The position numbers and the translations under genes were made by a program. Below the pieces are notes generated by a model. It worked only from the letters and a program-made list of their open reading frames with translations. It did not search any database and was not told the DNA's origin. From NCBI GenBank assembly GCA_041653535.1, contig JBAZFH010000002.1, positions 173,011 through 237,010 on the forward strand: 64,000 nucleotides of DNA, written 5' to 3'. The stretch comes from Patescibacteria group bacterium. Its GTDB lineage: Bacteria; Patescibacteriota; Patescibacteriia; JACRDY01. This document shows, one piece after another, positions 18,970 through 60,350 of the stretch (its first letter is position 1; each line of letters starts with the position of its first letter).

Positions 18970-19671
18970 ATGCAAGCAGTGATACTAGCCGCCGGTCGTG
19001 GCGTACGTATGCAGCCTTTGACTTACGAAATACCAAAACCGATGCTCCGAGTGCAAGGCAAACCCATACTTGCTTACACCATAGATTTGTTGCCGGCAGA
19101 AATCGACGAAATTATTATTGTTGTTGGTTATCTCGGCGATCAGATCAAGGAATATTTCGGGCAAGACTACAACGGTAGAAAGGTTGTTTATGTCGAGCAG
19201 CAAGAACTGCTCGGTACAGGGCACGCATTGTCTTTATGTCGGGATATATTGCACGACAGATTTCTGGTTTTGATGGGAGATGATATATATTCTGCTGCCG
19301 ATATTCCGCGCTGTTTGGAGTACGAGCAAAGTATACTTGCCAAAGAAGTGACAGCCGAAGAAAAAAGAAATTACGGGGCGTTTGAAATAAACGACAAAGG
19401 AGATCTGATCGGTATTACCGAAAAAGAATTGCCGACCGGAGATAAGTTTTTGGTCAACACCGGTTTGTATGTACTAGACATGACATTTTTTGACTACGAT
19501 TTAGTCTCGATCAAAGACGGCAAAGAGTTTGGCCTACCGCAGACACTGGTGAATGTGGCCAAAGATCATCCGATCCGCATCGTGAAAACAGATTACTGGT
19601 TGCCGATAGGTTATCCTGATGATATCGAAAAAGCGGAGATATATTTGAGGAAAAATGGAGTGATTAGATAG
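18970..19671 (+). CDS. Sugar-1-phosphate nucleotidyltransferase (NTP_transferase family).
   Basis: 233 aa. The MQAVILAAGRGVRMQP...PKPML N-terminal G-x-G-x-R nucleotide-binding motif, then LGTGHA. Confidence 0.75.
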   Translation: MQAVILAAGRGVRMQPLTYEIPKPMLRVQGKPILAYTIDLLPAEIDEIIIVVGYLGDQIKEYFGQDYNGRKVVYVEQQELLGTGHALSLCRDILHDRFLVLMGDDIYSAADIPRCLEYEQSILAKEVTAEEKRNYGAFEINDKGDLIGITEKELPTGDKFLVNTGLYVLDMTFFDYDLVSIKDGKEFGLPQTLVNVAKDHPIRIVKTDYWLPIGYPDDIEKAEIYLRKNGVIR

Positions 19672-19705
19672 ATACTAGCCGCTAGCCGCTAGCGGCTAGT
19701 ATCTA
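19669..19705. repeat. Perfect 37-nt palindrome overlapping the stop codon of the nucleotidyltransferase gene.
   Basis: TAGATACTAGCCGCTAGC-C-GCTAGCGGCTAGTATCTA: 18-bp arms around a single central C. No adjacent U-tract. Confidence 0.85.
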
Positions 19706-19761
19706 GGTCTTAGTATTTAGTATCTAGGGAACATTATCGCTTAATTTATAACCACCGTCCT

Positions 19762-20298
19762 ATGAACCTAGACGAAAAGATTCGCAAGATTCCCAATTGG
19801 CCAAAAGAGGGTATTTTGTTTTACGACGTGACTACGCTTTTTGAAGATCCGGCGGCGCTACGTTATACTATCGACAAAATGATCGAGCCGTATCGCGGAC
19901 AAAAAATCGACAAGATAGTAGCTATCGACGCGCGCGGATTCTTGCTCGCAACGCCAATGGCGCTAGAAATGAACACCGGAGTATCTCTAGTCCGCAAGAA
20001 AGGCAAACTACCCCACAAAACTGTGGAAGCTAGTTACGAAAAAGAATATGGTCCAGATACGATAGTCATGCACGAAGATACTATCAAACCCGGGGAAAAG
20101 GTTTTGATTGTTGACGATCTGCTTGCTACCGGCGGCACGATGCTGGCGTCAGTGGAGCTGGTACGAAAGCTTGGAGGAGAGGTAGTGGGTGCTAGCGTTT
20201 TGGTAAACCTGTCGTTTTTGCCAGGGCTGGAAAAGTTGAAAGCTGAAGGAATAAGAGTAAATTATTTGGTGGAGTATAATAATGAGGCGGTAGTGTAA
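19762..20298 (+). CDS. apt: Adenine phosphoribosyltransferase.
   Basis: 178 aa with the VLIVDDLLATGGT PRPP-binding motif. Typical APRT length. Confidence 0.9.
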   Translation: MNLDEKIRKIPNWPKEGILFYDVTTLFEDPAALRYTIDKMIEPYRGQKIDKIVAIDARGFLLATPMALEMNTGVSLVRKKGKLPHKTVEASYEKEYGPDTIVMHEDTIKPGEKVLIVDDLLATGGTMLASVELVRKLGGEVVGASVLVNLSFLPGLEKLKAEGIRVNYLVEYNNEAVV

Positions 20299-20318
20299 TC
20301 TAATAATGATAAAAAAGC

Positions 20319-21104
20319 TTGTTTATGGATTTGTTTAAAAGTGCGGCAAAAGGTTATACGAAATATCGCGGAGAATATCCTAAAGAAGTAATTGAGAAAA
20401 TAATTGCTAAATTAAATTTAGATGGGTCAGGGCGTCTTTTGGATATCGGCTGTGGCGACGGCACATTAACCTTCGCATTATCGAAGTATTTTAAAGAAGT
20501 AGTTGCAGTGGATATAAGTATTGAAATGATAAATGAAGGGAAAAAAAGAGCCAAAGCATTAGGTGTTAACAATATTAATTGGATCGTAAAGAGCGCCAAT
20601 AGCTTAAATGATGATATCGGCAGATTTGATTGTATTACAATTGCTAAAGCGTTACATTGGTTTGATATAGAAAAAGTTTTATCTTTAAGCCATAAAATTT
20701 TAAAACATAATAGCGCAATTGTTATTTTAGGAGGAAAGAGTATTTGGAATTATGCACCAACAGAATGGGAGAAAAAAATAATTGAAATTATTAAAAAATA
20801 TCTTGGACCGGAAAGGATGACTATAAATGGCAAATTTCTGGTTTCACAAAAGCCCTACGAGGGTTATTTAAAGGAAGCGGGTTTTAAAAATATAAAGGTG
20901 TTTGGATATACTACGCCCAAAGGTCCTAAAACAGTTGACGAAGTTTTAGCCGAGCAGTTTTCGACTTCCTATGCGGCAAAAGAGCTTTTTGGCAATAGAT
21001 TAATCAATTTTGAACAAGAGTTGAAAAATGAATTATTAAAGATTCGTCCAGATAACAAATTTGTCAGCGAGTCTAGAGGAGATGTAATTATGGGGTTTAA
21101 ATAA
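20319..21104 (+). CDS. Class I SAM-dependent methyltransferase.
   Basis: LLDIGCGDGTLT motif I, acidic motif II (VDIS) and a Rossmann-fold layout. Confidence 0.8.
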   Translation: MFMDLFKSAAKGYTKYRGEYPKEVIEKIIAKLNLDGSGRLLDIGCGDGTLTFALSKYFKEVVAVDISIEMINEGKKRAKALGVNNINWIVKSANSLNDDIGRFDCITIAKALHWFDIEKVLSLSHKILKHNSAIVILGGKSIWNYAPTEWEKKIIEIIKKYLGPERMTINGKFLVSQKPYEGYLKEAGFKNIKVFGYTTPKGPKTVDEVLAEQFSTSYAAKELFGNRLINFEQELKNELLKIRPDNKFVSESRGDVIMGFK

Positions 21105-21136
21105 TAGTTGAATGAATTAAGAATAATAAATAAAAT

Positions 21137-21868
21137 ATGAAAATCGGCATTATCGGTGGTAGTGGTCTAGATGATCCAAAGATTCTAGAAAACGCCACAG
21201 AAAAAGAAGTGGAGACACCTTATGGTATGCCTGCCAGTGCTTTGATTATTGGTAAAATTGGTAATACTGATGTAGTGGTGGCTTCACGCCATGGTAAAGA
21301 TCACACTATTACTCCAACGCACGTTCCTTTTCGCGCCAACATTTGGGCGCTCAAAGAAGAGGGCTGCACCCATATTTTGGCAACCACTGCTTGCGGCTCG
21401 CTACGCGAAGAAATTAAACCGGGCGACTTGGTTTTTATCGATCAGTTTATTGATAACACCAAACATCGGATTCTGACTTTTTTTGAAGATCGGGTAGTAC
21501 ATACGCCAATGGCCGAACCGTTTAGTCGGGAACTGCGCGACAAACTTTCAGCTGCAGCTAAAGACCTTGGCTTTGCTTATCACGATAAAGGTACGATGGT
21601 AACTATCGAAGGACCGCGCTTTTCTACCAAAGCCGAATCGCATATGTTTCGCGCTTGGGGCGCTGACGTGGTTAATATGTCGACAGTACCTGAAGTGATA
21701 CTAGCTAACGAGCTTGGCATTCCTTATCAATCAATTGCTATGGCAACAGATTATGACTGCTGGAAAGAGGATGTTGAGCCGGTAAGCTTTGAAATGATTT
21801 TGCAGCGGATGGCGGAAAACGCCGATAAAGTGAGGAAGCTGATTATCCAGGTAATAAAAAATTTTTAA
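21137..21868 (+). CDS. mtnP: S-methyl-5'-thioadenosine phosphorylase (MTAP/MtnP family; predicted also to cleave 5'-deoxyadenosine).
   Basis: 243 aa. [13 protein letters not shown]...[10 protein letters not shown]...[27 protein letters not shown]...[17 protein letters not shown]...[13 protein letters not shown]...ATDYDCWKE is almost collinear with eukaryotic and bacterial MTAP. Confidence 0.9.
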
Positions 21869-21896
21869 CAATTTAATAATTTAATTAAAAAAAAGT

Positions 21897-22445
21897 ATGA
21901 AAAAAAATTGGCAAATATTTGTCGTTTTGGCAATAATAATTTTGGCAGCTGCTTCGCGCTTAGTTCATCATCCGTTTAATTTTACGCCGATCATTGCTTT
22001 GGCGTTATTTGCTGGTTGTTATTCCAAAAAACATTGGGCGATAATTTTGCCTTTGGGAGCGATGTTGGTCAGCGATTATTTTATTGGTTTTTATGACTGG
22101 CAGGTGATGGCTTCGGTCTACGTCGGTTTTGCCATCGCTTTTTATATCGGTTGGTTTTTAAAAAAACACAAAACCTGGTACGGGGTTGGTGCCGCAGCGC
22201 TTATTTCCTCGGTGGTGTTTTTTGGGGTAACCAATTTCGCAGTTTGGGGATTTTTTGAATGGTATCCGCATACTTGGGCGGGGCTGGTTTCTTGTTTCAC
22301 CTTAGCTTTGCCATTTTTTCGCAACAGCTTAGCCGGAGATCTGATTTACAGCGCCGCTTTATTCGGATTATTTGAAACAGCTATTTATTTCGTAGATAAA
22401 AAAAATTGGATAAAGCAAAACACGACTTCTCCGGAAAAGGTGTAG
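21897..22445 (+). CDS. Polytopic membrane protein (about 5 TM helices), function unknown.
   Basis: 182 aa. Hydrophobic segments throughout. No catalytic motif recognised. Confidence 0.55.
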   Translation: MKKNWQIFVVLAIIILAAASRLVHHPFNFTPIIALALFAGCYSKKHWAIILPLGAMLVSDYFIGFYDWQVMASVYVGFAIAFYIGWFLKKHKTWYGVGAAALISSVVFFGVTNFAVWGFFEWYPHTWAGLVSCFTLALPFFRNSLAGDLIYSAALFGLFETAIYFVDKKNWIKQNTTSPEKV

Positions 22446-22461
22446 TTAATGTCTAAAAAAT

Positions 22462-23421
22462 ATGGATAGTCAAAAACAAATTTCGATTGTTATTCCTCTT
22501 TACAATGAAGCAGGCAATCTCGAAAAATTATACAGCGACCTAAAAGATGTTTTAGCCAAAATTTCTTGTTCTTGTAATTATGAAATTATTTTTGTTGACG
22601 ACGGCAGTACCGATGGCAGCACCGAAATGGTTTTGCGTTTTGCTGCGAATGATCGGGCGGTAAAAGTGATAGAGTTCTCTCGTAACTTTGGTAAAGAGCT
22701 CGCTATAACCGCCGGCGTAAATAATTGCGAGGGAGATGCCTGTATTATCATGGATGCCGATTTACAGCATCCGATCGGGTTAATACCGGAGTTTGTCAAA
22801 AAATGGGAAGCAGGCGCCGAAGTGGTAGTGGGTGTTCGTGAAAAAAATAAAAACGAAGGTTTGACAAAAAAAATCGGTTCAATCCTTTTTTATAAAATTA
22901 TCGGTATGATTAGCGAGACAGAAATGGTGCCGCGTTCAACCGACTACCGTCTGCTTGACCGTAAAGTGATAAAAGAGTTTAACCGCTTTACGGAAAAAAA
23001 TCGTATTACCCGTGGATTAATTGCTTGGCTCGGTTTCAAAAAAGATTATATTTATTTTGCCGCCAACGCGCGCTATTCGGGCAGAGCCAGCTATGGATTT
23101 TTTAAACTAATCAAGCTGGCTTTATCGGCTTTCGTTACTCATAGTCTTTTTCCGCTAAAATTGGCCGGCTATGTTGGGGTTTTTATCACCATTTTTTCCG
23201 CAATAACCGGAATTTTTATCTTTACCGACAAATATATTCTCAATAATCTTTGGAACCTCAACTTTACCGGGACGGCTTTGCTAGCGGTTTTAATCATTTT
23301 TTTCGTCGGCATCATTCTTTGTTGCCTGGGATTGATCGCTCTGTATATTGCCAATATTCATGAAGAGGTTTCTCATCGGCCTCTATATATTGTCCGCCGC
23401 AGAGAAAACTTTGATAATTAG
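22462..23421 (+). CDS. Polyprenol-phosphate hexose transferase, GT2 (GtrB/CsbB/ArnC/DPM1-like).
   Basis: ISIVIPLYNEAGNL...IFVDDGSTDGS...FSRNFGKE...IMDADLQHP...RGLIAWLGF...YSGRASYGF. Two C-terminal TM helices, the classic architecture. Confidence 0.85.
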   Translation: MDSQKQISIVIPLYNEAGNLEKLYSDLKDVLAKISCSCNYEIIFVDDGSTDGSTEMVLRFAANDRAVKVIEFSRNFGKELAITAGVNNCEGDACIIMDADLQHPIGLIPEFVKKWEAGAEVVVGVREKNKNEGLTKKIGSILFYKIIGMISETEMVPRSTDYRLLDRKVIKEFNRFTEKNRITRGLIAWLGFKKDYIYFAANARYSGRASYGFFKLIKLALSAFVTHSLFPLKLAGYVGVFITIFSAITGIFIFTDKYILNNLWNLNFTGTALLAVLIIFFVGIILCCLGLIALYIANIHEEVSHRPLYIVRRRENFDN

Positions 23422-23445
23422 CAGGCAGTTCAATTTATTTATTTT

Positions 23446-24423
23446 ATGATTAAATACAGCTTTATCATACCGGTAAAGGAAATTAACGATTATATCCAGG
23501 AAACCGTTGCTGCTATTTTGAAAATTTCTCGCGACGATTACGAAATAATTATTTATCCGGATGTCGCTACTTCTGACGTCTGGTTAAAGACAAGGCAGAT
23601 TGCCACCGGACATGTCGGTCCGGCGCAAAAAAGAAGCTTGGCGATAAATGACGCCGCTAGCGAGATATTGGTTTTTGTTGATGACGATGCTTACCCGCAG
23701 GCGGATTTTTTGGACAAACTCGATGACGATTTTTCGTCGGCAGAGGTCGTGGCTGTCGGCGGTCCGGCTATTACTCCGGCAAGCGACGGTTTTTGGCAAA
23801 AAGTTTCCGGCGCTGTTTTTTTGAGTAAACTGTCGGGCGGATTTCCCGAACGTTACGCTGCAGTTGGTGTTAAACATTTTGTTGATGACTGGCCGAGTGT
23901 TAACCTGTCAGTGCGCAAAACAGATTTTTCCGCTGTCGGCGGTTTCGATAGCGTTTATTGGCCGGGCGAGGATACTAAACTTTGTATTGATCTGATTAAA
24001 AAAGCTAAAGGTAAAATACTCTATGATCCGGCTTTGATTTGCTTTCACCATCGTCGAGATGGATTTTTCAGACACTTAAAACAAATCGGCAATTATGGAC
24101 TTCATCGTGGGTTTTTTGTCAAAAAATTTCCCCAGACATCTTTGAAGTTAAAATATTTCTTTCCCGGTTTTTTTCTTTTGTTTGTACTGGTCGGAGCGCT
24201 TTTTAGTTTATACTCGCCATTTTTTTTAAAACTATATATACTAGGTTGGCTGGTTTATGTTTTGATTTTGGTTAAAGCCCTGCTGGAAATAAGTAAATAT
24301 GAGAAAAATTGGTCGATATTGCTTAATTCTTTATACTATATATTTTTTACCCATATTTTCTACGGCATTCGTTTTATTCAAGGTCTGATTTTTACGAGAG
24401 ACTTAAAAAGCAAATTAAGGTAA
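23446..24423 (+). CDS. GT2 glycosyltransferase with a C-terminal membrane domain.
   Basis: FIIPVKE N-terminal GT-A, DDD-type motif (VFVDDDAYP), GEDTKLC, and 3-4 C-terminal TM helices. Confidence 0.7.
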   Translation: MIKYSFIIPVKEINDYIQETVAAILKISRDDYEIIIYPDVATSDVWLKTRQIATGHVGPAQKRSLAINDAASEILVFVDDDAYPQADFLDKLDDDFSSAEVVAVGGPAITPASDGFWQKVSGAVFLSKLSGGFPERYAAVGVKHFVDDWPSVNLSVRKTDFSAVGGFDSVYWPGEDTKLCIDLIKKAKGKILYDPALICFHHRRDGFFRHLKQIGNYGLHRGFFVKKFPQTSLKLKYFFPGFFLLFVLVGALFSLYSPFFLKLYILGWLVYVLILVKALLEISKYEKNWSILLNSLYYIFFTHIFYGIRFIQGLIFTRDLKSKLR

Positions 24424-24427
24424 CAGC

Positions 24428-25885
24428 ATGAGAATTTCTATTTCTTATCCGCCTCTGGAATCGCCAAAAGGTACGCCGCTACTCAGCCAAAATCGGCAAT
24501 TTCAGTGGTTTAACAGTCCAACTTATATTTATCCGATGATTCCGGCTTACGCCGCGACGCTTTTGCAATCCCAAGGTCATGAGGTTTTATGGGATGACGG
24601 TATTGCCGAAGGTTTGGAATATAAAAAATGGTTAGAAAAACTATTGCATTTTTATCCTGAGTTGGTTGCTATCGAAACAAAAACTCCAGTGGTTAAAAAA
24701 CACTGGGAGATTATTAAGCAAATAAAAGACGTTATACCGAGCGGCAAGATAGTTCTGATGGGAGATCATGTTAGCGCTTTGCCGCAAGAATCGTTTGAAC
24801 AGTGTCCAGTAGATTTTGTGATTGCCGGCGGTAATTATGATTTTATTTTAGCTAATATCGCCGGATATTTGGCAAAACGGGAAAAACTGGGCGGCGGTAT
24901 TTGGTACCGCGACGGTAAAGAAATAAAAAATACCGGAGAGTACGATCCGCATGTTCATAATTTAGACGAACTGCCGATGATCGACCGCGAATTAACGCGC
25001 TTCCGTCTTTATGCTTACCAAAACGGAAATTTCAAATACACTCCCGGTTCATATATGATGAGTGGGCGTGATTGTTGGTGGGGGCGCTGCACTTTTTGTT
25101 CTTGGACAACGATTTTTCCCGGTAAAAATTTTCGCGTTCGCAGCGCGGAAAAAGCTCTAGACGAAGTCGGTAATTTGATAAAATTGGGAATCAAAGAAAT
25201 TATGGAAGATTCCGGTAGTTTGCCCGTCGGTAAATGGCTGGAGGATTTTTGTCAGGGCATGATTAAACGTGGTTACAGCAAAAAGGTGGTGATGAGTTGT
25301 AATATGCGTATCAATGGTATTAAAGATCCGGCTCTTTGGTGGTTGATGAAAGAGGCGGGTTTTCGTTTTATTTTATTTGGACTGGAGTCGGCTAACCAAG
25401 TAACTTTAGACCGAATAGAAAAAGGATTACGGGTCGAGGAAATAGAGCCGGGGTTAAAAATGTGCAAAGAAGCCGGACTTGAGCCGCACATTACGGCGAT
25501 GATCGGCTATCCTTGGGAGACTAAAACGGATGCCAAGAAAACGGTTGATCTGGCAAAAAGTTTATTTAAAAAGGGTTATGTTGATACGCTACAGGCGACG
25601 ATTGTTATACCTTATCCGGGAACTCCGTTGTATAAATATTGCAAGGAAAACAATTTACTGAATTTTGACGATTACGATCGTTTTGATCAGCGCGAGCAAG
25701 TAATGAAATCCGAGCTGACTACGACTGATGTTAAAGAATTGACTCAGGGGTTGTACAAATCATTTGTCACGCCAAAATTTTTGTTTAAAAAAATCATCAG
25801 TATTCGTAGTTTTGCCGATGTTAAATTTCTGGTTCGAGCGGCGATAAGGGTAGTTGGTCACTTGACCGACTTTAGTAAAAAATAA
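24428..25885 (+). CDS. B12-binding-domain radical SAM enzyme (class B-like) with an atypical Cys spacing.
   Basis: An N-terminal Rossmann-like B12-type domain, then the SGRDCWWGRCTFCSW cluster (C-x4-C-x2-C) and GYPWET / IPYPGTPLY blocks typical of class B radical SAM proteins. Confidence 0.65.
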   Translation: MRISISYPPLESPKGTPLLSQNRQFQWFNSPTYIYPMIPAYAATLLQSQGHEVLWDDGIAEGLEYKKWLEKLLHFYPELVAIETKTPVVKKHWEIIKQIKDVIPSGKIVLMGDHVSALPQESFEQCPVDFVIAGGNYDFILANIAGYLAKREKLGGGIWYRDGKEIKNTGEYDPHVHNLDELPMIDRELTRFRLYAYQNGNFKYTPGSYMMSGRDCWWGRCTFCSWTTIFPGKNFRVRSAEKALDEVGNLIKLGIKEIMEDSGSLPVGKWLEDFCQGMIKRGYSKKVVMSCNMRINGIKDPALWWLMKEAGFRFILFGLESANQVTLDRIEKGLRVEEIEPGLKMCKEAGLEPHITAMIGYPWETKTDAKKTVDLAKSLFKKGYVDTLQATIVIPYPGTPLYKYCKENNLLNFDDYDRFDQREQVMKSELTTTDVKELTQGLYKSFVTPKFLFKKIISIRSFADVKFLVRAAIRVVGHLTDFSKK

Positions 25886-25895
25886 AATAAAAAAA

Positions 25896-27191
25896 ATGAA
25901 AAAATATATTTTGGCCTTAGCAAGCAACAGGATAGTGCGTAACAGTTCTATTCTTTTTATTGGTTCAATGATTTGTGCGGTCGGCAACTACCTTTTTCAT
26001 TTAATAACCGCTCGAATGTTGACTGTTAACGCTTATGGCGAGATGGAGTCATTGATTGCTCTGTTCTATATTATCTCCGTACCGGCTGGAACGATTATGA
26101 CCGTGATTATCAAATATTCTGCTCAATTCAGCGCCGAAGGAAGACTTGATAAAGTACATAAATTATTTACCGCTTTCAGTCATAAGCTGCTCTTGGCCGG
26201 ATTTATTTGTTTTATTGTTATTTTTTTTCTTAGTCCGTGGATTGCCAAATTTTTACAACTATCTTCAGTTTTACCCGTGATAATTTTAGGAACAATAATG
26301 ATTACGGCGCTGCTGTTGTCTTGTGGTCGTGGAGTTCTCAACGGTTTGCAAAAATTTTTTTCAACGGCGATAAATATGGTTATTGAAGTTTTAACCAAAA
26401 TTATTTTAGCCTTTGCTTTTATTTATTTCGCTTTCGGCGTTAATGGCGCAATCGGAGCAATCAGTATCGCTGCTCTAACCGCTTATCTCTTCGTTTTCAA
26501 ACCATTACGTTTTTTGCTTAAGGAAAAAATCGACGAAACAAAAATTGATTATAAAGAAATTTTTCTTTTTTCTTTGCCGACACTTTTTATTACTCTGTTT
26601 CTCAATCTTTTTTATAATGTTGACGTTTTGTTGGTCAAACATTTTTTTGATCCGAGTATGGCCGGGCAATACAGTGCATTGACGGTGCTTGGTCGGATAG
26701 TATTTTTTGTAACCATGACCATCTCGACGGTGGTTTTTCCACTGACAGCCGAAGCCCATACTAAAAACGAAAATCATAGGAAGATTTTGAATCAAGGTTT
26801 TATTTTAGTAAGTTTAATAGCTGGAACGGCTTTGTTTTTATTTTTTTCCGTCCCGGGACTGGTTATCAAAATTTTAATCGGTAGTAAATTTTTGGCAGTC
26901 GCCCCGTATCTTGGCTGGTTTGGACTGGCGATGTTTTTTTATTCTTTGGTTTATCTTTTAACTCAATATTTTTTGTCTATTGGTAAAACCAAATGTCTAT
27001 ACATTGTAACCGTCGGTGTCGCAGTGCAGGTAACGTTGATAATGTTGTTTCATAATAGTATCGTGCAGATAGTGCAGATAATGAACGTAGTAATGATTGG
27101 GACGACACTGGCTTTGCTTATTTATTATAAAAAAATCGGTAAGATATTAATGGTAGATAGGCAGCAGATACAAGAAGTAATAACGCAATAA
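25896..27191 (+). CDS. Polysaccharide/oligosaccharide flippase (Wzx/MOP superfamily).
   Basis: 431 aa with about 12 predicted TM helices. Polysacc_synt-like profile. Embedded among glycosyltransferases. Confidence 0.7.
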   Translation: MKKYILALASNRIVRNSSILFIGSMICAVGNYLFHLITARMLTVNAYGEMESLIALFYIISVPAGTIMTVIIKYSAQFSAEGRLDKVHKLFTAFSHKLLLAGFICFIVIFFLSPWIAKFLQLSSVLPVIILGTIMITALLLSCGRGVLNGLQKFFSTAINMVIEVLTKIILAFAFIYFAFGVNGAIGAISIAALTAYLFVFKPLRFLLKEKIDETKIDYKEIFLFSLPTLFITLFLNLFYNVDVLLVKHFFDPSMAGQYSALTVLGRIVFFVTMTISTVVFPLTAEAHTKNENHRKILNQGFILVSLIAGTALFLFFSVPGLVIKILIGSKFLAVAPYLGWFGLAMFFYSLVYLLTQYFLSIGKTKCLYIVTVGVAVQVTLIMLFHNSIVQIVQIMNVVMIGTTLALLIYYKKIGKILMVDRQQIQEVITQ

Positions 27192-27200: not shown

Positions 27201-28205
27201 ATGGAGCGGTTATTTGTTTCAATTGTTATGCCGACGTTTAATTCGGCTAGAACGCTGGAGGCGGCTTTAGCGGCGATAAAAAATCAAAATTATCCGGCGG
27301 ACAAAGTTGAGATAATTATTGCTGATGCCGGATCGACCGATAAAACCAGACAGATCGCCAATAAATATACTAACTTGATTTTTGATAATCCTCTGACTAC
27401 CGGCGAAGCGGGCAAAGCCGTGGCGGTAAAAAAAGCCAAGGGCGATATTGTCGCACTAATAGATTCGGACAATATTTTACCGACTAACGATTGGTTGGAA
27501 AAAATGGTCGCGCCATTTGACGACCCGGAGATTATCGGCAGTGAACCGTTAGAATATACGTATCGTCCGACGGATCACTATATTACGCGCTACTGCGCCC
27601 TGATTGGTATGAACGACCCTCTGTGTTATTTTTTGGGCAATTATGATCGTTATAGCTTTTTAAGTAAAAAATGGAACGGACTACAAATTAAAGTCGAAGA
27701 GCAAGACGATTATCTGAAAGTCTTTTTGGAACCAGGGAAAATGCCGACGATTGGCGCCAATGGTACGATGATTAGAAAGCAGTATTTGCAAAACGTTGGT
27801 GACTATTTGATGGATATAGATATTATTTACGATTTAGTTGCTTCTGGCAAAAATAAATTTGCCAAAGTAAAAGTAGGTATCATTCATCTTTTCGGCGGCA
27901 GTCTAAAAACTTTTTACCGTAAACAAAAAAGGAGGGTGAAAGATTATTTGTATTTTAAAGACAAGGGTAACCGTAGTTATCCCTGGAAAAGTCAGTCTCG
28001 CGTTGGTTTGGTCAAATTTGTTGTTTATTGTCTTTTGATTTTTCCTTTAATTTTTCAGAGCATAATCGGATTTTGCCGCCGGCGTGATTGGGTTTGGTTT
28101 CTGCATCCGGTGTTTTGTTGGATTACTTTTTGGGTTTACGGTTGGGGGACAATCTTTAGTTTGTGGCATAAAGAGCAGATGAGTCGAGAAAAGTACGGAC
28201 AGTAG
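27201..28205 (+). CDS. GT2 glycosyltransferase with a C-terminal membrane anchor.
   Basis: VSIVMPTFNSARTLEAAL...IIADAGSTD...IDSDN (DxD) and a C-terminal hydrophobic region. Confidence 0.75.
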   Translation: MERLFVSIVMPTFNSARTLEAALAAIKNQNYPADKVEIIIADAGSTDKTRQIANKYTNLIFDNPLTTGEAGKAVAVKKAKGDIVALIDSDNILPTNDWLEKMVAPFDDPEIIGSEPLEYTYRPTDHYITRYCALIGMNDPLCYFLGNYDRYSFLSKKWNGLQIKVEEQDDYLKVFLEPGKMPTIGANGTMIRKQYLQNVGDYLMDIDIIYDLVASGKNKFAKVKVGIIHLFGGSLKTFYRKQKRRVKDYLYFKDKGNRSYPWKSQSRVGLVKFVVYCLLIFPLIFQSIIGFCRRRDWVWFLHPVFCWITFWVYGWGTIFSLWHKEQMSREKYGQ

Positions 28206-50376: not shown

Positions 50377-50377
50377 T

Positions 50378-51574
50378 ATGCGGATATGTTTTTTTAATCT
50401 TAATCGGCTTGATTACGAAGGTGGCGCCGAAAAGTATTTTGTCGAGACGGCTGCCGCGCTAAAAAGGGATGGTCAGGATGTTTTTTTTGTTTGTGATAAT
50501 TACTTTTACGTTCGGATTCGGCCAAAAATAGAAAATTTTATTTTTCGTCTGATCGGAGCGCCACTGCATCAAAATGGGATTACTTCCCGCCAGCTGGAAG
50601 AAGATCTGAAAATATTTGATAGCTACAAAATGCCGCTATTATTTCAGTTGCCGTTTTCCGCCGCACGCAGGAAAATCAAAAAATTATTAGCCCAAGCCGA
50701 CGTAATTTATTGCAAAAACGAGTTTATTGATTCTTGGTATTTGAAACGTTTAATCGGCAAAAAGGGATTTGCCAAAGTAGTGCTTGGATTACACACTGCT
50801 ATTTTTTTAGCCAATGCAGAATCTTTTCATTCGCGAGTTCATAATTTTTTGTATTTTTCGCGCGTTTACCAAAAAGTTTTGCAGCTTTGCGGCGCCGTTC
50901 ATGTGATCAACAATTCCTATAAAGATAAATTGGTCGAAAGTTTCAAGCTTGATCCGGGAAAAATTGTCTTTGTGCCAAACGGAATAAAAGAAAACGATTT
51001 GGAAAGGACGACTGCCGGCGAAAGTGACGCTTTTAAGATTTTATTCGCCGGACGCTTTACCGAACAAAAAGGCATTGATTATTTGTCGGAAATCATTGAT
51101 AATCTATCTAAAGATCCAATCTTTTCGCGAATAGAAATATTGATTGCCGGAGCGGGTCAGCGCCAGGATATTGTAGATAAATTGATAAATAAATTTAGTA
51201 ACGTCAAATATCTTGGTTTTGTCAAGGAAATGTCGAATCTTTATCGACAAGTTGATATTTGCATCGTGCCGTCACGTTGGGAAATGTTTCCGTATAATTG
51301 TCTGGAGCCGCAAGCGAAAAGTTTGCCAGTAGTGGCTTTCGACATTCCCGGAACTAAAGATATTGTTGTTAATGGCACGACCGGGTTACTTACTCCGCTT
51401 GGCGAGGCGAATTCCTTTAGCGGGGCAATAAAAAAAATGTTTGATCTAAAGGCTAATAACCGCGTCGAGTGGCAAGTGATGAAAGATGCGGCTTACAAAA
51501 ATGTTTCGGAAAGATTTACTCTGACAGCTGTGGCAAAAGAACTGGAAAAACTTTTTGAAAAAGTAAAAAAATAA
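50378..51574 (+). CDS. GT4 glycosyltransferase.
   Basis: GT-B layout. EMFPYNCLEPQAKSLPVVAFDIPG motif. ATG 50378 is preferred over the TTG 50369 of the ORF track. Confidence 0.75.
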   Translation: MRICFFNLNRLDYEGGAEKYFVETAAALKRDGQDVFFVCDNYFYVRIRPKIENFIFRLIGAPLHQNGITSRQLEEDLKIFDSYKMPLLFQLPFSAARRKIKKLLAQADVIYCKNEFIDSWYLKRLIGKKGFAKVVLGLHTAIFLANAESFHSRVHNFLYFSRVYQKVLQLCGAVHVINNSYKDKLVESFKLDPGKIVFVPNGIKENDLERTTAGESDAFKILFAGRFTEQKGIDYLSEIIDNLSKDPIFSRIEILIAGAGQRQDIVDKLINKFSNVKYLGFVKEMSNLYRQVDICIVPSRWEMFPYNCLEPQAKSLPVVAFDIPGTKDIVVNGTTGLLTPLGEANSFSGAIKKMFDLKANNRVEWQVMKDAAYKNVSERFTLTAVAKELEKLFEKVKK

Positions 51575-51575: not shown

Positions 51576-52127
51576 ATGGTAGAGCTGCAAAAAATAAACT
51601 TTGGTTGCGGGCACAAACATTTGTCCGGTTTTATTAATGTTGATAATAACCCCAACGTCAAAGAAGCTGATGTTGTTCATGACTTAAATATCTTTCCTTA
51701 TCCTTTTGCTGATTCTTCGGTTAACGAAGTAATCATGGACCATGTTTTGGAACACTTGGACGATCCGATTCGGGTGATTGAAGAGCTATATCGAATCAGT
51801 GCTGACGGGGCGATGCTTTATATCAAGACGCCGCATTTTTCTTGCAACTGGCTGCACCCGGGGCACAAAAATGGGATTAGCACGATGCTTTTCAGCTATT
51901 TTGTTCATGACGGAGATGATTACTACGGAGATTGTTACTTTGAAGTAAAGAAAATCAAGTTAAGCTGGTTGCGTCCAGCAAACAAACATTCGGTTGCGCT
52001 CAATACGCTTTCCCGGATAATTAATTTTTTCGCCAACCTCAATATTGGTTTCTGTCAGCGAGTTTGGTGTTACTGGGTGGGGGGATTTGAAGAGTTAGAA
52101 TTTGAAACCAAAGTAATAAAAAAATAA
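51576..52127 (+). CDS. Class I SAM-dependent methyltransferase (small).
   Basis: INFGCGHKHLSGFINVD motif I, DHVLEHL. 183 aa. Confidence 0.65.
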   Translation: MVELQKINFGCGHKHLSGFINVDNNPNVKEADVVHDLNIFPYPFADSSVNEVIMDHVLEHLDDPIRVIEELYRISADGAMLYIKTPHFSCNWLHPGHKNGISTMLFSYFVHDGDDYYGDCYFEVKKIKLSWLRPANKHSVALNTLSRIINFFANLNIGFCQRVWCYWVGGFEELEFETKVIKK

Positions 52128-52128: not shown

Positions 52129-53346
52129 ATGACAGAGTTTTTTTTCTCGGAAATAGAAAAATATAAATATCCGGATTTTCTGATTGATATTATCCAGGAT
52201 TCTTTGAATATTTTTCTTGGTAATATCGGTGAAGACAATCTTGCCGCCGTTGTCCTTCATGGTAGCACCGCGAAGGGTAAAATTACTATTATTGGTGATC
52301 AGCTCTACAGCGATGTGGAGTTTTTTGTCTTTGTTCGCCGTAGCGTTAGCGGCGCGGCAGCAGAAAAAATAAGAAACGATTTGGTGGCGATAAAAGAAAA
52401 GTACCATCAAAAAAACCGTTTTTTTCATGTCGACTTTATTATTAAGAAAAAGTGTTTAATGCGGTTTTATCAGAGAAACCTTTTGATCTATGAGCTGAAA
52501 AACGCCGGTAAGGTTTTGTACGGTGATCTGAATATTCTTTCTAATATCCCGAAGATCGATGAAAAAAACATTAATCTGAGAGCCGTCAACGATATTATGC
52601 TTATGCGCTTGAGGGTTTTCTTGAAAGATTTTAGTTTTAATCCTGGTGACAAAGAGGATTATTATGCGTTACTAAAAAATGTTTATCAGTATTTAATGGC
52701 GGTGGTTGTTTTTAATAAAGGGATTTTGTTACCTAGCGGTTATGACAGGTATAAATATGTCGAAGCGCACCACGAGGACTATTTATTTTTGGGGGACAGA
52801 TTTTTTTCCAATTATTATTTTTCCAGTCGGATGAAATTTCCGATGCACTTTGCGGAAAACGAGAGAAACGTGTCTTTTGATAAGGGGTATTTTGATTACG
52901 CCAAAGAAGTGGTGGGCGGCATGTTTTTAGTTCTGAGACTTTTACTTCAAAAAAACAATCTGTCCCAGTCAGAGATAAATGAGGAGAACGTTTTTTCTGT
53001 TTTAGACAGATCAGCCGATATTTTTAATGACAGCTGGTTCGATGTTTATAGTCTGGCTTGTCGGGTGCGCTATCTCAAGCAAGTTGTTTTATCGGGTAAG
53101 ATTTTTTCTCTATTTAAAGCTTTTAGACCGATAAAAAAGAAATTGGTTTTGGCGTATCTGGCGCTTTGTTTTGCTCTCAAAAAACAACTAAATGGCGAAT
53201 CACCAGATTTGTATTTGCAGTTGGCGGCAAAATATACCAAGCAACTCAGTTACGAAAATACAAAGTTTTCTCTGACAGGGGACTTTAAAAAAGATTTTTA
53301 TTTCCTTAAAGCGGAGCTGCTCACTATTTATCGAATTGTTTTTTAA
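52129..53346 (+). CDS. Nucleotidyltransferase-fold (pol-beta-like) domain protein, function unknown.
   Basis: VLHGSTAKGK...SDVEFFVFV resembles the minimal NTase motif hG[GS]...D.[DE]. The rest is an uncharacterised helical region. 405 aa. Confidence 0.45.
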   Translation: MTEFFFSEIEKYKYPDFLIDIIQDSLNIFLGNIGEDNLAAVVLHGSTAKGKITIIGDQLYSDVEFFVFVRRSVSGAAAEKIRNDLVAIKEKYHQKNRFFHVDFIIKKKCLMRFYQRNLLIYELKNAGKVLYGDLNILSNIPKIDEKNINLRAVNDIMLMRLRVFLKDFSFNPGDKEDYYALLKNVYQYLMAVVVFNKGILLPSGYDRYKYVEAHHEDYLFLGDRFFSNYYFSSRMKFPMHFAENERNVSFDKGYFDYAKEVVGGMFLVLRLLLQKNNLSQSEINEENVFSVLDRSADIFNDSWFDVYSLACRVRYLKQVVLSGKIFSLFKAFRPIKKKLVLAYLALCFALKKQLNGESPDLYLQLAAKYTKQLSYENTKFSLTGDFKKDFYFLKAELLTIYRIVF

Positions 53347-53347
53347 T

Positions 53348-54454
53348 ATGGCTAATCTGGTTATCTTCATCGACGGTTTTCCTTACGATCAGCTGGCGCA
53401 GACCGATTTTTTGAATAATCTCAAAAAAAGTCGTCGTATTCCCGGTATCGGCTATAGTTTTAATCTTTATTTGGAGATGTTTGCTGGACTAGTGCCAGAT
53501 CAAAGCGGTGTGTTTTGTGAGTTTGCTTTTGAGCCGCAACGGTTGCAAAATAAAACCGTTCGTATTTTAATGCCGGTTTTGAAAATTATTGATAAACTCG
53601 GTATCTTTTCTTCTCTTTTTAAACGTTTTGTCACAGGGTATTGTGGTTTTAAGTTTCACAACGTGCCGTTTGCCTACCGATATTTTTTCACCGACGCGGG
53701 AAAACAAATCCAACGTCCTGATCTGCGGGAAAAAACTATTTTTAAGAAAATAGAAAAGTTAAGTAATGGTAAAATTTTTGATCATAGCATTTGCTGCTAT
53801 ACCGACAAAGAAAGCGTGGGTCTTTTTTATCAAAATATTGACGCCGATAATCTTTTTATTCATTTCACCGAGCTGGATGGAGCCGGTCACGCCGGATTTT
53901 TGAGCGCCGAATATTTTGCTAAGCTAAAATGGCTTGATGATAAGCTGAAAAATATCTGGCAAAAATATCAAGAGCGGCATCCGGGAGCAAATCTTATTAT
54001 TTTGTCAGATCATGGTTTTTGCTCGGTTGAGAAATTTATCCGACCGGAGTTTGAAAGAATCGGCAGCTTAAAAGCCGGTAGAGATTATTTTTATTTTGTT
54101 GATACGACTATGGTTAAGTTTTGGTTTTTATCACAAGCGGCAAAAGAAGCGGTTTTGAAATATTTAAGCGGTTTGGATTTTGGCAGGGTTTTAAGTGAAC
54201 AAGAACGTTTGGCTTCAGGAATAGCAGACAAAAAGTTTGCTGACGAGATTTTTTTACTTCAGCCCGGCATTGCCTTTTTCCCTTCTTTTTACGGTGGAAT
54301 CATTAAGGTTAAAGGAGTACACGGTTACGGTCCGGAGTGTAGCGGACATCACGGAATATTTTTGTATAATACGCCAAGGCGGGTTGAAATTGCGCCTATC
54401 ATCAATAACAAAGAAACATATCAGTGCATTTTAGATATTTTAGATTTAAAATAA
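53348..54454 (+). CDS. Alkaline-phosphatase-superfamily enzyme (type I phosphodiesterase / nucleotide pyrophosphatase-like).
   Basis: LVIFIDGFPYD, HFTELDGAGH and ILSDHGF, the metal-ligand motifs of the NPP/phosphodiesterase family. ATG 53348 is 2 nt after the previous stop. Confidence 0.65.
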   Translation: MANLVIFIDGFPYDQLAQTDFLNNLKKSRRIPGIGYSFNLYLEMFAGLVPDQSGVFCEFAFEPQRLQNKTVRILMPVLKIIDKLGIFSSLFKRFVTGYCGFKFHNVPFAYRYFFTDAGKQIQRPDLREKTIFKKIEKLSNGKIFDHSICCYTDKESVGLFYQNIDADNLFIHFTELDGAGHAGFLSAEYFAKLKWLDDKLKNIWQKYQERHPGANLIILSDHGFCSVEKFIRPEFERIGSLKAGRDYFYFVDTTMVKFWFLSQAAKEAVLKYLSGLDFGRVLSEQERLASGIADKKFADEIFLLQPGIAFFPSFYGGIIKVKGVHGYGPECSGHHGIFLYNTPRRVEIAPIINNKETYQCILDILDLK

Positions 54455-54458
54455 TAAG

Positions 54459-57400
54459 ATGATTGTCTTGGAAAAAATAAAAAAGTATTGGCCGATTTTA
54501 TTTATTTTAGTTTTGGGTTCTTTGCCCTTGGTTTGGTTTAGAGATGGTCTGCTTATCGCCGGCGGCGACAATGATTGGTATCTTAACCCGGTAAAGCTTT
54601 TTCACGATGCCCTTTACACCTGGTCAGGGCTAAAAAGCGCTGGAGAAATAAATTTTTTGGTTTGTCATATTTTTCCATTGCCTGCTTTTTGGGCTTTATT
54701 AAAACTGGTCGGTTTGAGTTTGGTTAATATCCAGAGGCTATGGACTATTTTGATTTTCGTTACCCCGGCTCTATCGATTTATTATTTGGTTATCAGATAT
54801 TTTGGCGCAGACAAAAAGGAGGTTAAATATCAGCTCGTCGGACTGCTAGCCGCTATCCTCTATAGCTTCAATATGTTTTTGATTAATAGTCCGCTCAACT
54901 CCGTTGCTTCTCCGGTGCTGGCAATCATGCCGCTGATGCTTTGGTTCTTTATTTCGGCTTTGGAGCAAGAAAAATTTTCTTTCAAATATCCGGCGGCTAT
55001 TAGCGTGTTATCTATTTTCCTCTTTTTTTCGAACACCAATCTGGCGGAAGTTAGTATTATACCACTGGTCCTCGGTCTTTATTTGTTATTTTTTGTTGCT
55101 TTCAACTTTAAATTTTTTAAAATAGTTCATGCTTTCAAAGTAGTCGTGGCTAGTGTAGTCGCATATCTGGCGGTTAACTCCTGGTGGTTGCTGATAATAT
55201 CTTTTTCTTTTGTTGAAGCTGCTTCCAAAGCAGGAGAAATTGTAAAAAGTATCAGTTTTGTCGAACGTAGTTATTTGTTTGAAGTATTTAGATTGATGGG
55301 TTTTTGGGCTTTTAGGATCAAAACCGGCGCGGGGCTTTCAAACGTGCCGTACAGTGATTTGTATTATCAACCTTTACTTATAATCTTGACCTACCTAATT
55401 CCACTAGTGGTATTTTTCGCTTTAATTTTTCGACCGCGGGACAAGAAGATTATTTTTTTCTCCCTGATTTTTTTGCTGGGAATATTTTTAGCCAAGGGGA
55501 CCAATGAACCGTTTGGTGTCGTCTATGGTTTTTTGTTTGAAAAGATCCCTGGATTTTGGGTTTTTCGCAACCCTTACTCCAAATTTATGCCTTTGACGAT
55601 ATTTGGTTTTTCGATTTTGTATGGTTTATCTGCCGCCGATATATATTATGGAGCAAAAAAGTGGTTTGTAACCAAGATAAAAAACCGGCAAAGGGCGGTA
55701 GCGATGGCTTTGATTATCCTTGTGTTTTTGGGGTTACTGCCAATTGCGGCTGCCTGGCCAATACTGACCGGTAAATTTTTGTCCGATGCTTCCTGGTATG
55801 GTACACCTGAAAAATCAATGCATGTCCAAGTGCCGGACTACTGGCAGCAAGCAAACAAATGGTTTACAGAAAACGACCCTGAAGGTAGAGTTTTGCTTTT
55901 ACCCAAAGCAGGATATGGGCATTGTTATAAATGGTTGTCGGGAATATGCACCGGAGGATATGTTGCCAACTATCTTATACCAAATCCGATTATCAGCTAT
56001 CCCAATCTAAAAATAGATTCTCCGTACGATAACACGATTGATAGTCTTTTTTCTTACATTAAACCGCAGACCAGGGTTGATCTTGCCGAATTACTGGGTG
56101 TTTTTAATATTAAATATATCTTGCAGCAAGACGATTTACTGTGGCAAAGGGCGGGCACCGATTCTTATTCGCCGGAACAGATAAAAAATATTTTAGCGGA
56201 GCAGCCGGGGATAGAGTTTATAAAAAATTTTGGCAAGTTGAATCTTTATCAGATTAAAGGTGATTATTACGTGCAGAGAATTTTTGCCCCACGTAAAGTT
56301 AGTTATACGTCTAGCAAAGATCCCCTGGAGACAAGTCAGGCGGTTTTACTCAACAAAAAAAACGTGACGGAAGAGTCGATGTTCGAAATAAAAGATGGTT
56401 TGGATAGTTCAGACAAGGATTTGATAGCAACAAAAAGACTAGCCGATACTAACGGTTATAGTCTAGATATACCAGCGCAGGCAGAATATGATTTTTATTT
56501 GATTCAAAAACCAATCTCGCCGCAAGTTGTGGTCTGTGCCGGATGCCCGTCGGGTTTTGGTATTAGTCTTGGCGATGAATATTCGGGGAAACAATTATTT
56601 TTTACTAAAGCAATAAGTGGTGGAGTTTACTTTGATAATGACAAAAAGATTTCTTTGTCCTGGCGTCGGTCGATAAAGATTTATCCTTTAGACGTTAATG
56701 ATGTGGGTATTGATAGTCCGATAGTCGGTTGGAGTTTTATCCAAAATGTTGGGGCGGTAGATCTTTACGGGTCGCAGCTGTCGGAAAATTTTCCCGAAGA
56801 CTACAAAACGTCATCAGAAGCAAAAATATTTTTTGCCGGTTTCCGGGATGGACAGCAACTGGGCGAAGACTGGGGGGTCGAAATTTTTCCCGATTCTTTT
56901 GAAATAGGGACTATGAAGACCAGAAGGGTGGTGGTTAGTGTGCCAGCGGGAACTAGACCCGGGGAGGGCTATCGATTCGTTTATCTCAAAAAACCAAGCA
57001 TGCTTTCCGATTTAGATTTTGGGAGCAATGTCGGCACAAGCAGTGTTTTATCTGTCGGTTCTGCAAGTCTCGCTGCCGGCAATCATCGTGTTTTATTGAC
57101 CGGACTGACCAGCGAGGATTTGGATAAAATGACTTTTGTTGCCAAGAAAAAGGTGGTGGAAGGCGGAGTGGTGGTGCCAAAAATAACATTCAAAAAAATC
57201 AACCCGACAAAGTATAAAGTGATGGTTAGTGGAGCTGTAACCGATTTTTCTTTGGTTTTTTCTGAAAACTTTAATACTTTTTGGAGGGTTTATGTCTTTC
57301 CTCAAGTATTTTTAAGCCAAAGGGAACTTTCGGGCAAGCCTTTTTCGCCAGTGTCATCAAGCGGTCCGGTAGACGCTGATTTTGTAAGCGAGGAATATGG

Positions 57401-57677
57401 CGGATCCACGCAGAATAATAATCTTACGTCGCCTTTTTACAAGACATATTTTAGGTCTTCGCTTGGCGAGCACCAGCATTTTTTGGCCAATGGTTATGCT
57501 AATGGTTGGTGGATTAAGCGACCGGACTGCCTTGAACAAGGAGATAAGTGTCAGAATTTCGAAATCATTATTGAATTTTGGCCACAAAGGATTTATTATC
57601 TCGGTGGCTTGATTTCCGGTCTGTCATTTTGTTTGATATTGTTTTATTTGATCAAAAAAATACGGTCGAGGGAATAA
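54459..57677 (+). CDS. Very large polytopic membrane protein (putative GT-C-fold glycosyltransferase), paralogue of 35901-38342.
   Basis: 1072 aa. About 13 N-terminal TM helices, an extracytoplasmic domain of about 600 aa and a terminal EFWPQR-TM anchor. The conserved blocks are listed for the paralogue. Confidence 0.55.
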   Translation: MIVLEKIKKYWPILFILVLGSLPLVWFRDGLLIAGGDNDWYLNPVKLFHDALYTWSGLKSAGEINFLVCHIFPLPAFWALLKLVGLSLVNIQRLWTILIFVTPALSIYYLVIRYFGADKKEVKYQLVGLLAAILYSFNMFLINSPLNSVASPVLAIMPLMLWFFISALEQEKFSFKYPAAISVLSIFLFFSNTNLAEVSIIPLVLGLYLLFFVAFNFKFFKIVHAFKVVVASVVAYLAVNSWWLLIISFSFVEAASKAGEIVKSISFVERSYLFEVFRLMGFWAFRIKTGAGLSNVPYSDLYYQPLLIILTYLIPLVVFFALIFRPRDKKIIFFSLIFLLGIFLAKGTNEPFGVVYGFLFEKIPGFWVFRNPYSKFMPLTIFGFSILYGLSAADIYYGAKKWFVTKIKNRQRAVAMALIILVFLGLLPIAAAWPILTGKFLSDASWYGTPEKSMHVQVPDYWQQANKWFTENDPEGRVLLLPKAGYGHCYKWLSGICTGGYVANYLIPNPIISYPNLKIDSPYDNTIDSLFSYIKPQTRVDLAELLGVFNIKYILQQDDLLWQRAGTDSYSPEQIKNILAEQPGIEFIKNFGKLNLYQIKGDYYVQRIFAPRKVSYTSSKDPLETSQAVLLNKKNVTEESMFEIKDGLDSSDKDLIATKRLADTNGYSLDIPAQAEYDFYLIQKPISPQVVVCAGCPSGFGISLGDEYSGKQLFFTKAISGGVYFDNDKKISLSWRRSIKIYPLDVNDVGIDSPIVGWSFIQNVGAVDLYGSQLSENFPEDYKTSSEAKIFFAGFRDGQQLGEDWGVEIFPDSFEIGTMKTRRVVVSVPAGTRPGEGYRFVYLKKPSMLSDLDFGSNVGTSSVLSVGSASLAAGNHRVLLTGLTSEDLDKMTFVAKKKVVEGGVVVPKITFKKINPTKYKVMVSGAVTDFSLVFSENFNTFWRVYVFPQVFLSQRELSGKPFSPVSSSGPVDADFVSEEYGGSTQNNNLTSPFYKTYFRSSLGEHQHFLANGYANGWWIKRPDCLEQGDKCQNFEIIIEFWPQRIYYLGGLISGLSFCLILFYLIKKIRSRE

Positions 57678-57682
57678 AAATT

Positions 57683-59539
57683 ATGAAAAATAAAATTATT
57701 AAAATCATAAAAGCCATGTTTAGTTGGTGGTCGGCGGGAGAGCGGATAATATTTTTAGAGTACGCCGCACTGTCTATTTTTATATTATTGCCGATATTTA
57801 AACCCGGATATATTTTTGCTCTGGACTTTACCGCCGCTCCGCATTTTGATTTTCCATCCACAGTTTCTTTCGAGTACCCGTGGTTAGTTTTTTTGTGGTT
57901 ATTAAATCTGTTTATTCCGGCGGCAGTGATACAAAAGATAATTTGCTTCGCCATTCTGTTTTTAGCCGGCATCGGTGCACATTATTTTGTCGGAAAGTTT
58001 TCGTCGACTAAATGGTCAAAATATTTTGCCGGTTTGTTGTTTATCTTTAATCCGTTAGTTTATTCTCGTTTAGCTTATGGTCAGTTTCGTTTTTTGTTAG
58101 GGTACGCTCTATTGCCGTGGTTATTTTTAGCTGGCTTGCGGTTTTTGAAACAACCATTGATTAAAAAGACGTTTTATTTAGCGCTACTCCTAACGGTTTG
58201 CGGAGCAGTCAGTCTCCATATTTTGTTTATATTTTCTTTTGTTTTTATCGCGACGTGGCTGACTCGTTTTTTTCAATCAATTTATAACAGAAATTATTTG
58301 TTTGAATTTTTAAAACAAACCGTTTTTTTATTGCTATTATTTTTGTTTTTAAATAGTTATTGGTTATTACCGGTTTTTGTCAACCATTCTAGCGTCAACA
58401 ATGCTCTGTCATCTTTTGACCAGCGGGACGTCTTTGGTTTTCAGACCAATGCCGACTCTCGCTTTGGGGTTTTTGTTAACACAGCAGCGATGTATGGTTT
58501 TTGGGGTGACAGAGAGGGTCGTTATTTTTCTCAAAAAACAGTAGTCTCTTATTGGTTTGTTTTGTTTCTAGTGTTATTATTTTTTGTTTTTTGGGGCGTT
58601 GGTTTGTTGTTTTGGAAATTAATCAAGAAATATCATCAGTTCAGATTATTGACAAACCCGTCTGTTGCTCAGCTAAAAGATGAACGATTATCGGAAGATA
58701 TTTGGCTTGCCCTCCCAATATTTTTTTGTGCCGTTGTCGCTTTGTTTATGGCTGTCGGCGTGGCGCATCCATTTTCTGCGCTGATTTCTCAGTGGTTATA
58801 CCAAAACTTTTCTTTTTATAAAGGTTTTAGGGAGCCGCAAAAATGGGTAGTGGTCTTGATTTTAGCTTATACCTATTTTGCTTCATTTGGTGTTGATGAT
58901 TTGGTAAAGAAAGCCGCCCGCGGTCTTGAGTATTTGGCCAGGAGAGCCAATCAACTAAAAACAAAGAAACCGATTTTATTTTTATTGTCAGTTTTTAGAA
59001 AAGTTTTGCCCGTGATATTTCTGATCGTTCCTTTGTTCTACAGTCCGATATTATTGCTAGGGCTTGGTCGCCAGATGTGCGTTGGTTCTTATCCGGCCAG
59101 TTGGTACGAGTCTAACGAGCTGTTAAATTCTGATCAGGAAAATTTTCAGACGCTTTTTCTGCCATGGCACATGTATCTCAATCTGTCTTTTGCTTGTAAC
59201 AAGGTAGTAACAAATCCTGCCGCTGCCTTTTTTGATAAACCATTTATAGTCGGAGACAATATTGAATTTGGAAATATTTATAACCAAAATAATCGGGCTG
59301 ATTCAAAATATGTCGAAGAAAACATATTGCAAAACAAAGGGCGGTTTACTCAAAAAGACGGCGGGGGTTTAGGAGAAGTGTTGAATACGATAAACGTTAA
59401 GTATGTTGTTTGGGCAAAAGAGTCGGATTTTTTTAATTATGATTTTGTTAAATTGGCGCCGGACTTAGAATTGGTTTATGATAGAGACAGGATTCAAATT
59501 TATAAAAATTTAAAATGGCAAGATGAAAAAAATAGATAA
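57683..59539 (+). CDS. Large polytopic membrane protein related to the N-terminal TM region of the two giant paralogues.
   Basis: 618 aa from ATG 57683; the ORF-track 57578 start is an extension overlapping the upstream gene. Multiple TM helices with the FALDFTAAPHFDFP loop motif. Lacks the EFWPQR C-terminal anchor. Confidence 0.5.
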   Translation: MKNKIIKIIKAMFSWWSAGERIIFLEYAALSIFILLPIFKPGYIFALDFTAAPHFDFPSTVSFEYPWLVFLWLLNLFIPAAVIQKIICFAILFLAGIGAHYFVGKFSSTKWSKYFAGLLFIFNPLVYSRLAYGQFRFLLGYALLPWLFLAGLRFLKQPLIKKTFYLALLLTVCGAVSLHILFIFSFVFIATWLTRFFQSIYNRNYLFEFLKQTVFLLLLFLFLNSYWLLPVFVNHSSVNNALSSFDQRDVFGFQTNADSRFGVFVNTAAMYGFWGDREGRYFSQKTVVSYWFVLFLVLLFFVFWGVGLLFWKLIKKYHQFRLLTNPSVAQLKDERLSEDIWLALPIFFCAVVALFMAVGVAHPFSALISQWLYQNFSFYKGFREPQKWVVVLILAYTYFASFGVDDLVKKAARGLEYLARRANQLKTKKPILFLLSVFRKVLPVIFLIVPLFYSPILLLGLGRQMCVGSYPASWYESNELLNSDQENFQTLFLPWHMYLNLSFACNKVVTNPAAAFFDKPFIVGDNIEFGNIYNQNNRADSKYVEENILQNKGRFTQKDGGGLGEVLNTINVKYVVWAKESDFFNYDFVKLAPDLELVYDRDRIQIYKNLKWQDEKNR

Positions 59540-60350
59540 AGAAAAAATAATTTTTGGCGTCAAGCTGATAATTTTGCTGTTAGTTGTGATTTTTAGTTTG
59601 TATAAAGACATTACCATTGTTGGTTTGTTGGTTCTGGCTTTTTCGGCATATGTTATTTTGTGGCAACAAGAGATCGCTACTAGTTTTGTAGCTGGGATTT
59701 TGTTACTGATTGTCTCACAGGTTATAACCGTATTTCGTTCAGAGGTCAGTGCGCGGTCATTGGCTGGTTATGGCTTGGTATTAATTTTAGTATCTATTTT
59801 TACTTGGTTTTTTGTTTACTTCAAAGATAAGCTTAGATTTATTCTGAGAAGATTTATTTTTAGTAAGACAGAACCATTAGTTGCGGAAGGGATTGGTAAT
59901 TATAAAAAAGCAGTGGCGAGGTTGAAAGATTCTAATAAAGGGACAAATATGTCTTTTACCAAACGAATACAGCAGCGGTGGTCGTTGATAATAATGCTGC
60001 TTTTGAGTATTTGGAAGGGTAGCCGATTTTTTGTAGTCAAAATCGCCGCCATGATTTTGTTGTTTCTGATTATACTGGTTATGACAAGTTGGTCGATTCT
60101 AAATACTTTTATTTTATTGGTGATGTTTATAGGAATTTTATTCAACATTGATGCCCGACCGGTTTTTCTATTAGGTATAATTTTGTTAATAGGGATACCG
60201 ATATTTTTGATTTTGGGTAAAGAGGGGGTAAGCGCTGTTTTAGCAATTTACGCCTATCACGCCTTAATTATTGGTTTTATATGGGACTTGGCAGGTGCAA
60301 TAAGGATCAAATATCAGGGCGCGCGACCGATCTGTGCCAGGTTTGAGTAA
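59523..60350 (+). CDS. Polytopic membrane protein, hypothetical.
   Basis: 275 aa with at least 6 TM helices. Overlaps the upstream gene by 17 nt. No motif recognised. Confidence 0.5.
   Translation: MKKIDKEKIIFGVKLIILLLVVIFSLYKDITIVGLLVLAFSAYVILWQQEIATSFVAGILLLIVSQVITVFRSEVSARSLAGYGLVLILVSIFTWFFVYFKDKLRFILRRFIFSKTEPLVAEGIGNYKKAVARLKDSNKGTNMSFTKRIQQRWSLIIMLLLSIWKGSRFFVVKIAAMILLFLIILVMTSWSILNTFILLVMFIGILFNIDARPVFLLGIILLIGIPIFLILGKEGVSAVLAIYAYHALIIGFIWDLAGAIRIKYQGARPICARFE

Follow-up and report, generated by a model that had tools for sequence, protein, structure and literature searches.

A Patescibacteria gene array for a cell-envelope sugar polymer with five radical SAM enzymes

Introduction

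Among the families to which the radical SAM enzymes considered here are most similar, HpnJ and BchE have been classed as non-methylases, and in a similarity network Fom3 and MoeK5 co-cluster with HpnJ (PMC9204698). AprD4, the solved structure nearest to one of them, has diol dehydratase activity and binds no cobalamin (PMC12931638). We describe an array in an uncultivated Patescibacteria genome that encodes a cell-envelope sugar-polymer pathway with five radical SAM enzymes. In agreement with a first-pass annotation of this DNA, no described pathway matching the array was found in the literature.

Results

Array layout and glycan machinery

Within the 64,000-nucleotide stretch analyzed (the window), 37 plus-strand ORFs follow one another over 41 kb (18970–60350), compared with the ~35 packed genes first reported. 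The 36 junctions comprise 9 overlaps and gaps of 0–10 nt (14), 11–30 nt (9) or more than 30 nt (4); half of all junctions measure 8 nt or less (median), and the widest is 90 nt. The co-directional run is wider (10353 to 63749) and is not array-specific. As had been claimed, no plus-strand terminator-like site was found in the intergenic gaps from 18970 to 60350; the first strong one lies downstream of the array, at 61507–61535. Domain annotation of each ORF with Pfam and NCBIfam reproduced nearly all first-pass calls. Genes are named below by their start coordinates, and those for glycan assembly are as follows:

18970..19671, +, sugar-1-phosphate nucleotidyltransferase, predicted NDP-sugar supply (PF00483 NTP_transferase, 93 bits)
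22462..23421, +, polyprenol-phosphate sugar synthase, GtrB/ArnC/PgfS type (GT2 PF00535, 112.8 bits; 2 C-terminal TM segments)
23446..24423, +, membrane GT2 (PF00535 and PF13632; 2 TM segments)
25896..27191, +, Wzx-type (MOP/Polysacc_synt) flippase (PF01943, 60 bits; PF13440, 51.6 bits; 12 TM segments)
27201..28205, +, GT2 glycosyltransferase (PF00535, 80.8 bits; 1 TM segment)
30442..32766, +, fused double GT4, 774 aa (two GT4 N-terminal and C-terminal domain sets)
35901..38342, +, GT-C fold polytopic glycosyltransferase, AftD-like (PF11847, 42.1 bits, cut-off 26; 14 TM segments)
38410..39567, +, GT4 glycosyltransferase (PF00534, 101.6 bits)
46623..47765, +, GT4 glycosyltransferase (PF00534, 83.6 bits)
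50369..51574, +, GT4 glycosyltransferase (PF13692, 99 bits)
54459..57677, +, giant GT-C fold glycosyltransferase, AftD-like, 1072 aa (PF11847, 90.6 bits; 13 TM segments)
57578..59539, +, polytopic membrane protein, GT-C only tentatively (PF11847, 22.5 bits, under the cut-off of 26; 9 TM segments)

The top NCBIfam matches of 18970 (the Arch_glmU N-terminal domain and AglF) are under cut-off, and 22462 aligns full-length with PgfS at 219 bits and with ArnC at 142 bits, each score under its equivalog cut-off. The nucleotidyltransferase, polyprenol-phosphate GT2, GT2 and flippase calls stood, but the description of a complete lipid-linked set was overstated, because the scanned ORFs of at least 100 aa across the window yielded neither a priming transferase (initiating phosphoglycosyltransferase) nor a polymerase, with no match to Wzy or Wzz. 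The double GT4 was recovered, with three single GT4s (38410, 46623 and 50369) rather than the four proposed. Two of the three supposed giant GT-C proteins, 35901 and 54459, were retained (26% identity across 649 aa); the third, 57578, scored below the cut-off and displayed no BLAST similarity to either, and its annotated TTG start, which overlaps the preceding gene by 100 nt, is doubtful.

The NDP-sugar tailoring set claimed earlier (two SDRs, a PseB/FnlA-like dehydratase, RmlD, a cupin and CE4) was reproduced in full by Pfam and NCBIfam, and is listed here with a DUF218 gene:

28275..29312, +, NDP-hexose 2-epimerase of the CDP-tyvelose 2-epimerase family, SDR1 (phmmer against PDB)
29328..30431, +, GalE-like SDR epimerase/dehydratase with internal insertion, SDR2 (PF01370 and PF16363, matched in two stretches)
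39575..40240, +, DUF218 protein (PF02698, 52.2 bits)
40250..41266, +, UDP-GlcNAc 4,6-dehydratase, PseB/FnlA/CapE type (PF02719, 327.5 bits)
41250..42173, +, RmlD-type 4-keto-6-deoxy sugar reductase (TIGR01214, 227.9 bits, cut-off 224.05)
42139..42525, +, stand-alone cupin (PF14667, 105.9 bits)
43406..44218, +, CE4 polysaccharide/sugar deacetylase (PF01522, 42.8 bits)

SDR1 matched TaTyvE (9rl0; phmmer E 5e-104, 351 bits) and 1orr (E 3.5e-88), and the top PDB match of SDR2 was the UDP-glucose 4-epimerase 4zrm (E 2.8e-48). The dehydratase lies under the curated cut-offs for PseB (355 versus 407.75 bits) and FnlA (327 versus 730), and the part of CapF/WbcJ-type enzymes to which the cupin corresponds is their C-terminal domain (NF047837 model positions 251–366 of 372).

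Radical SAM enzymes and methyltransferases

The five radical SAM genes are the following:

24428..25885, +, class-B-like radical SAM, B12a (PF04055, 54.8 bits)
34453..35871, +, class B radical SAM with B12-binding domain, B12b (PF02310, 77.5 bits; PF04055, 75.5 bits)
45130..46617, +, class B radical SAM, B12c (PF02310, 56.3 bits; PF04055, 84.8 bits)
32769..33797, +, radical SAM with BtrN-like Twitch-type auxiliary-cluster domain, SPASM1 (PF04055, 80 bits; PF13186, 63 bits)
49243..50376, +, radical SAM with Twitch-like four-Cys auxiliary domain, SPASM2 (PF04055, 73.9 bits; PF13186, 50.4 bits)

None of the five reached a curated NCBIfam cut-off, each falling short by a wide margin, and they belong to uncharacterised families. 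Three had been called B12-binding class B proteins. This holds for B12b and B12c, which carry CX3CX2C at C195 and C225, respectively, but the B12-binding match of B12a (20.3 bits) is under the Pfam cut-off of 32.1. B12a also lacks CX3CX2C and contains the variant CX4CX2C (C216-X4-C221-X2-C224) instead; its CWWG[RK]CxFC motif is kept in 4 orthologues. The best family is HpnJ for B12a (169 bits) and reaches 262 bits for B12c, against a cut-off of 577.6, while B12b scores ~120 bits with BchE, HpnJ and ApyD, far under their cut-offs, and has MgmA (9ccb, E 3.5e-14) as its top PDB match. AprD4 is closest to B12c among solved structures, both by sequence (E 7e-29) and by predicted fold (TM 0.74/0.80; model pLDDT 94.6).

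The two proteins called radical SAM-SPASM do match PF04055 and PF13186, but only four C-terminal Cys are conserved in them, in a BtrN-like pattern. SPASM1 matches BtrN best in PDB (E 4e-18), followed by BlsE, and its C262, C280, C325 and C328 align with the four Cys at the C terminus of BtrN; in SPASM2 the sole invariant Cys are C56/60/63 and C310/328/365/368. The four-Cys Twitch pattern suggests a single auxiliary cluster in each protein, and both possibly perform dehydrogenase-type chemistry. The fold search for SPASM2 was ambiguous (SkfB, BlsE, DesII), and its orthologue group is small: among 1.84 billion cluster representatives, just 6 share at least 43% identity with it.

All seven class I methyltransferases reported previously were reproduced by Pfam:

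20319..21104, +, UbiE-like class I SAM methyltransferase (Methyltransf_25, 66 bits; Ubie_methyltran, 59.7 bits)
33807..34424, +, class I methyltransferase, 205 aa (Methyltransf_23, 49 bits)
42532..43416, +, class I methyltransferase (Methyltransf_23, 94.9 bits)
44215..45129, +, class I methyltransferase (Methyltransf_23, 109 bits)
47779..48573, +, class I methyltransferase (Methyltransf_11, 67 bits)
48591..49253, +, class I methyltransferase (Methyltransf_11, 62.6 bits)
51576..52127, +, short class I methyltransferase-like protein (Methyltransf_11, 27.5 bits, C-terminal half of model only)

Other genes and the downstream neighbour

The remaining features are as follows:

19762..20298, +, adenine phosphoribosyltransferase, Apt (NF002634, 223 bits, cut-off 170; TIGR01090, 211.9 bits, cut-off 185.85)
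21137..21868, +, 5'-methylthioadenosine phosphorylase, MTAP (TIGR01694, 308.5 bits, cut-off 274.85)
21897..22445, +, DUF6580 small polytopic membrane protein (PF20221, 167 bits; at least 4 TM segments)
52129..53346, +, soluble 405-aa protein (no TM segments)
53336..54454, +, soluble alkaline-phosphatase-superfamily protein, phosphodiesterase/metalloenzyme (PF01663, 41.9 bits; no TM segments)
59523..60350, +, polytopic membrane protein, final gene of the tight array (8 TM segments)
60498..61487, +, membrane-anchored fn3 protein (PF00041, 28 bits; Gly-Tyr repeat; Gly/Ser/Thr/Pro linker)
61507..61535, +, intrinsic-terminator-like hairpin (13-bp stem with 6 G-C pairs, then a T-rich tail)

Four 5' genes that had been counted in the glycan array (19762, 20319, 21137 and 21897) are salvage or non-assigned genes and are not counted here as glycan genes. 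Apt is a salvage gene outside the glycan set; MTAP could also clear 5'-deoxyadenosine from radical SAM turnover. Methyltransferase 20319 sits between these two, and its glycan connection is uncertain. The DUF6580 protein had no PDB match by sequence, Pfam gave 52129 no match at E ≤ 0.001 and, above that limit, a weak one to Polbeta nucleotidyltransferase (E 0.012), and 59523 matched nothing in Pfam or PADLOC. A promoter-like site (60379–60407) lies between the array end and the fn3 gene, whose product (Ser+Thr 23.7%) is a possible glycosylation target.

Recurrence in other genomes

A synteny search showed that the same blocks and gene combinations recur across many uncultivated phyla. The B12c family, with >3000 homologues, is large, uncharacterised and linked to sugar-nucleotide genes: in 28 of 35 species-level loci, a sugar-nucleotide SDR gene lies no more than 5 kb away. 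These loci come from at least 12 phyla, DPANN archaea among them. One relative (P0024) is fused to a sugar-1-phosphate nucleotidyltransferase (NTP_transferase). SDR1 is a conserved partner of the family, with 56–61% identical homologues flanking it in other phyla, where SDR2 homologues (52–65%) adjoin it as well. Homologues of 18970 (35% identity) adjoin it in L017, L018, L021, L050 and L080, those of 22462 in Thermodesulfobacteriota-type and Chloroflexota loci, and those of 51576 (35–42%) in Endomicrobia loci L035, L045 and L047.

The place of GT4 46623 directly downstream of B12c is taken in L005, L010 and L012 by homologues of 45–50% identity, and these loci also contain homologues of 48591 (61–66%) and of the giant GT-C 54459; L005 has one of 47779 (56%). 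The order SPASM2, GT4 (50369, whose position directly downstream of SPASM2 is conserved) and giant membrane protein recurs in L005, L006, L012 and L015. GT2 23446 is a member of a conserved Wzx-GT2-B12a block, and its 40% identical homologues flank Wzx and B12a in L012 and L013. The triad SPASM1-33807-B12b is conserved in L089, with a 205-aa methyltransferase in the middle. The double GT4 has a full-length homologue in L013 (41%) and a 773-aa equivalent immediately upstream of a SPASM1 homologue in L091, and a full-length homologue of 35901 (33%) adjoins a GT4a homologue in L010.

Discussion

These results support the proposal that the locus serves a glycan or glycoconjugate and is unusually rich in SAM chemistry. 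The best reading is a modular envelope-glycan locus whose sugars would be tailored by radical chemistry; the nearest characterised or solved relatives of B12c (HpnJ and AprD4) and SPASM1 (BtrN and BlsE) act on sugars. The earlier step from class B membership to C-methylation was not established: the best-scoring families for B12c and B12a, HpnJ and BchE, are classed as non-methylases (PMC9204698), and AprD4, the closest solved structure to B12c, does not itself bind cobalamin (PMC12931638). As HpnJ shares its similarity-network cluster with Fom3 and MoeK5 (PMC9204698), C-methylation by these enzymes is possible but unproven, and deoxygenation, oxidation or ring rearrangement is equally possible. 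None of the five was placed by NCBIfam in peptide-maturase or tRNA/rRNA families.

The idea of a one-off locus was rejected, as the same blocks are present in other Patescibacteria, Omnitrophota, Elusimicrobiota and DPANN. Other Patescibacteria have equally radical-SAM-rich loci assembled from these blocks, and some of the related loci match or exceed this array in radical SAM gene count. The blocks also occur apart from each other in other genomes, and the array does not have to make one product. Since the same combinations of enzymes and sugar genes recur in many uncultivated phyla, they point to sugar tailoring so far undescribed for surface glycans.

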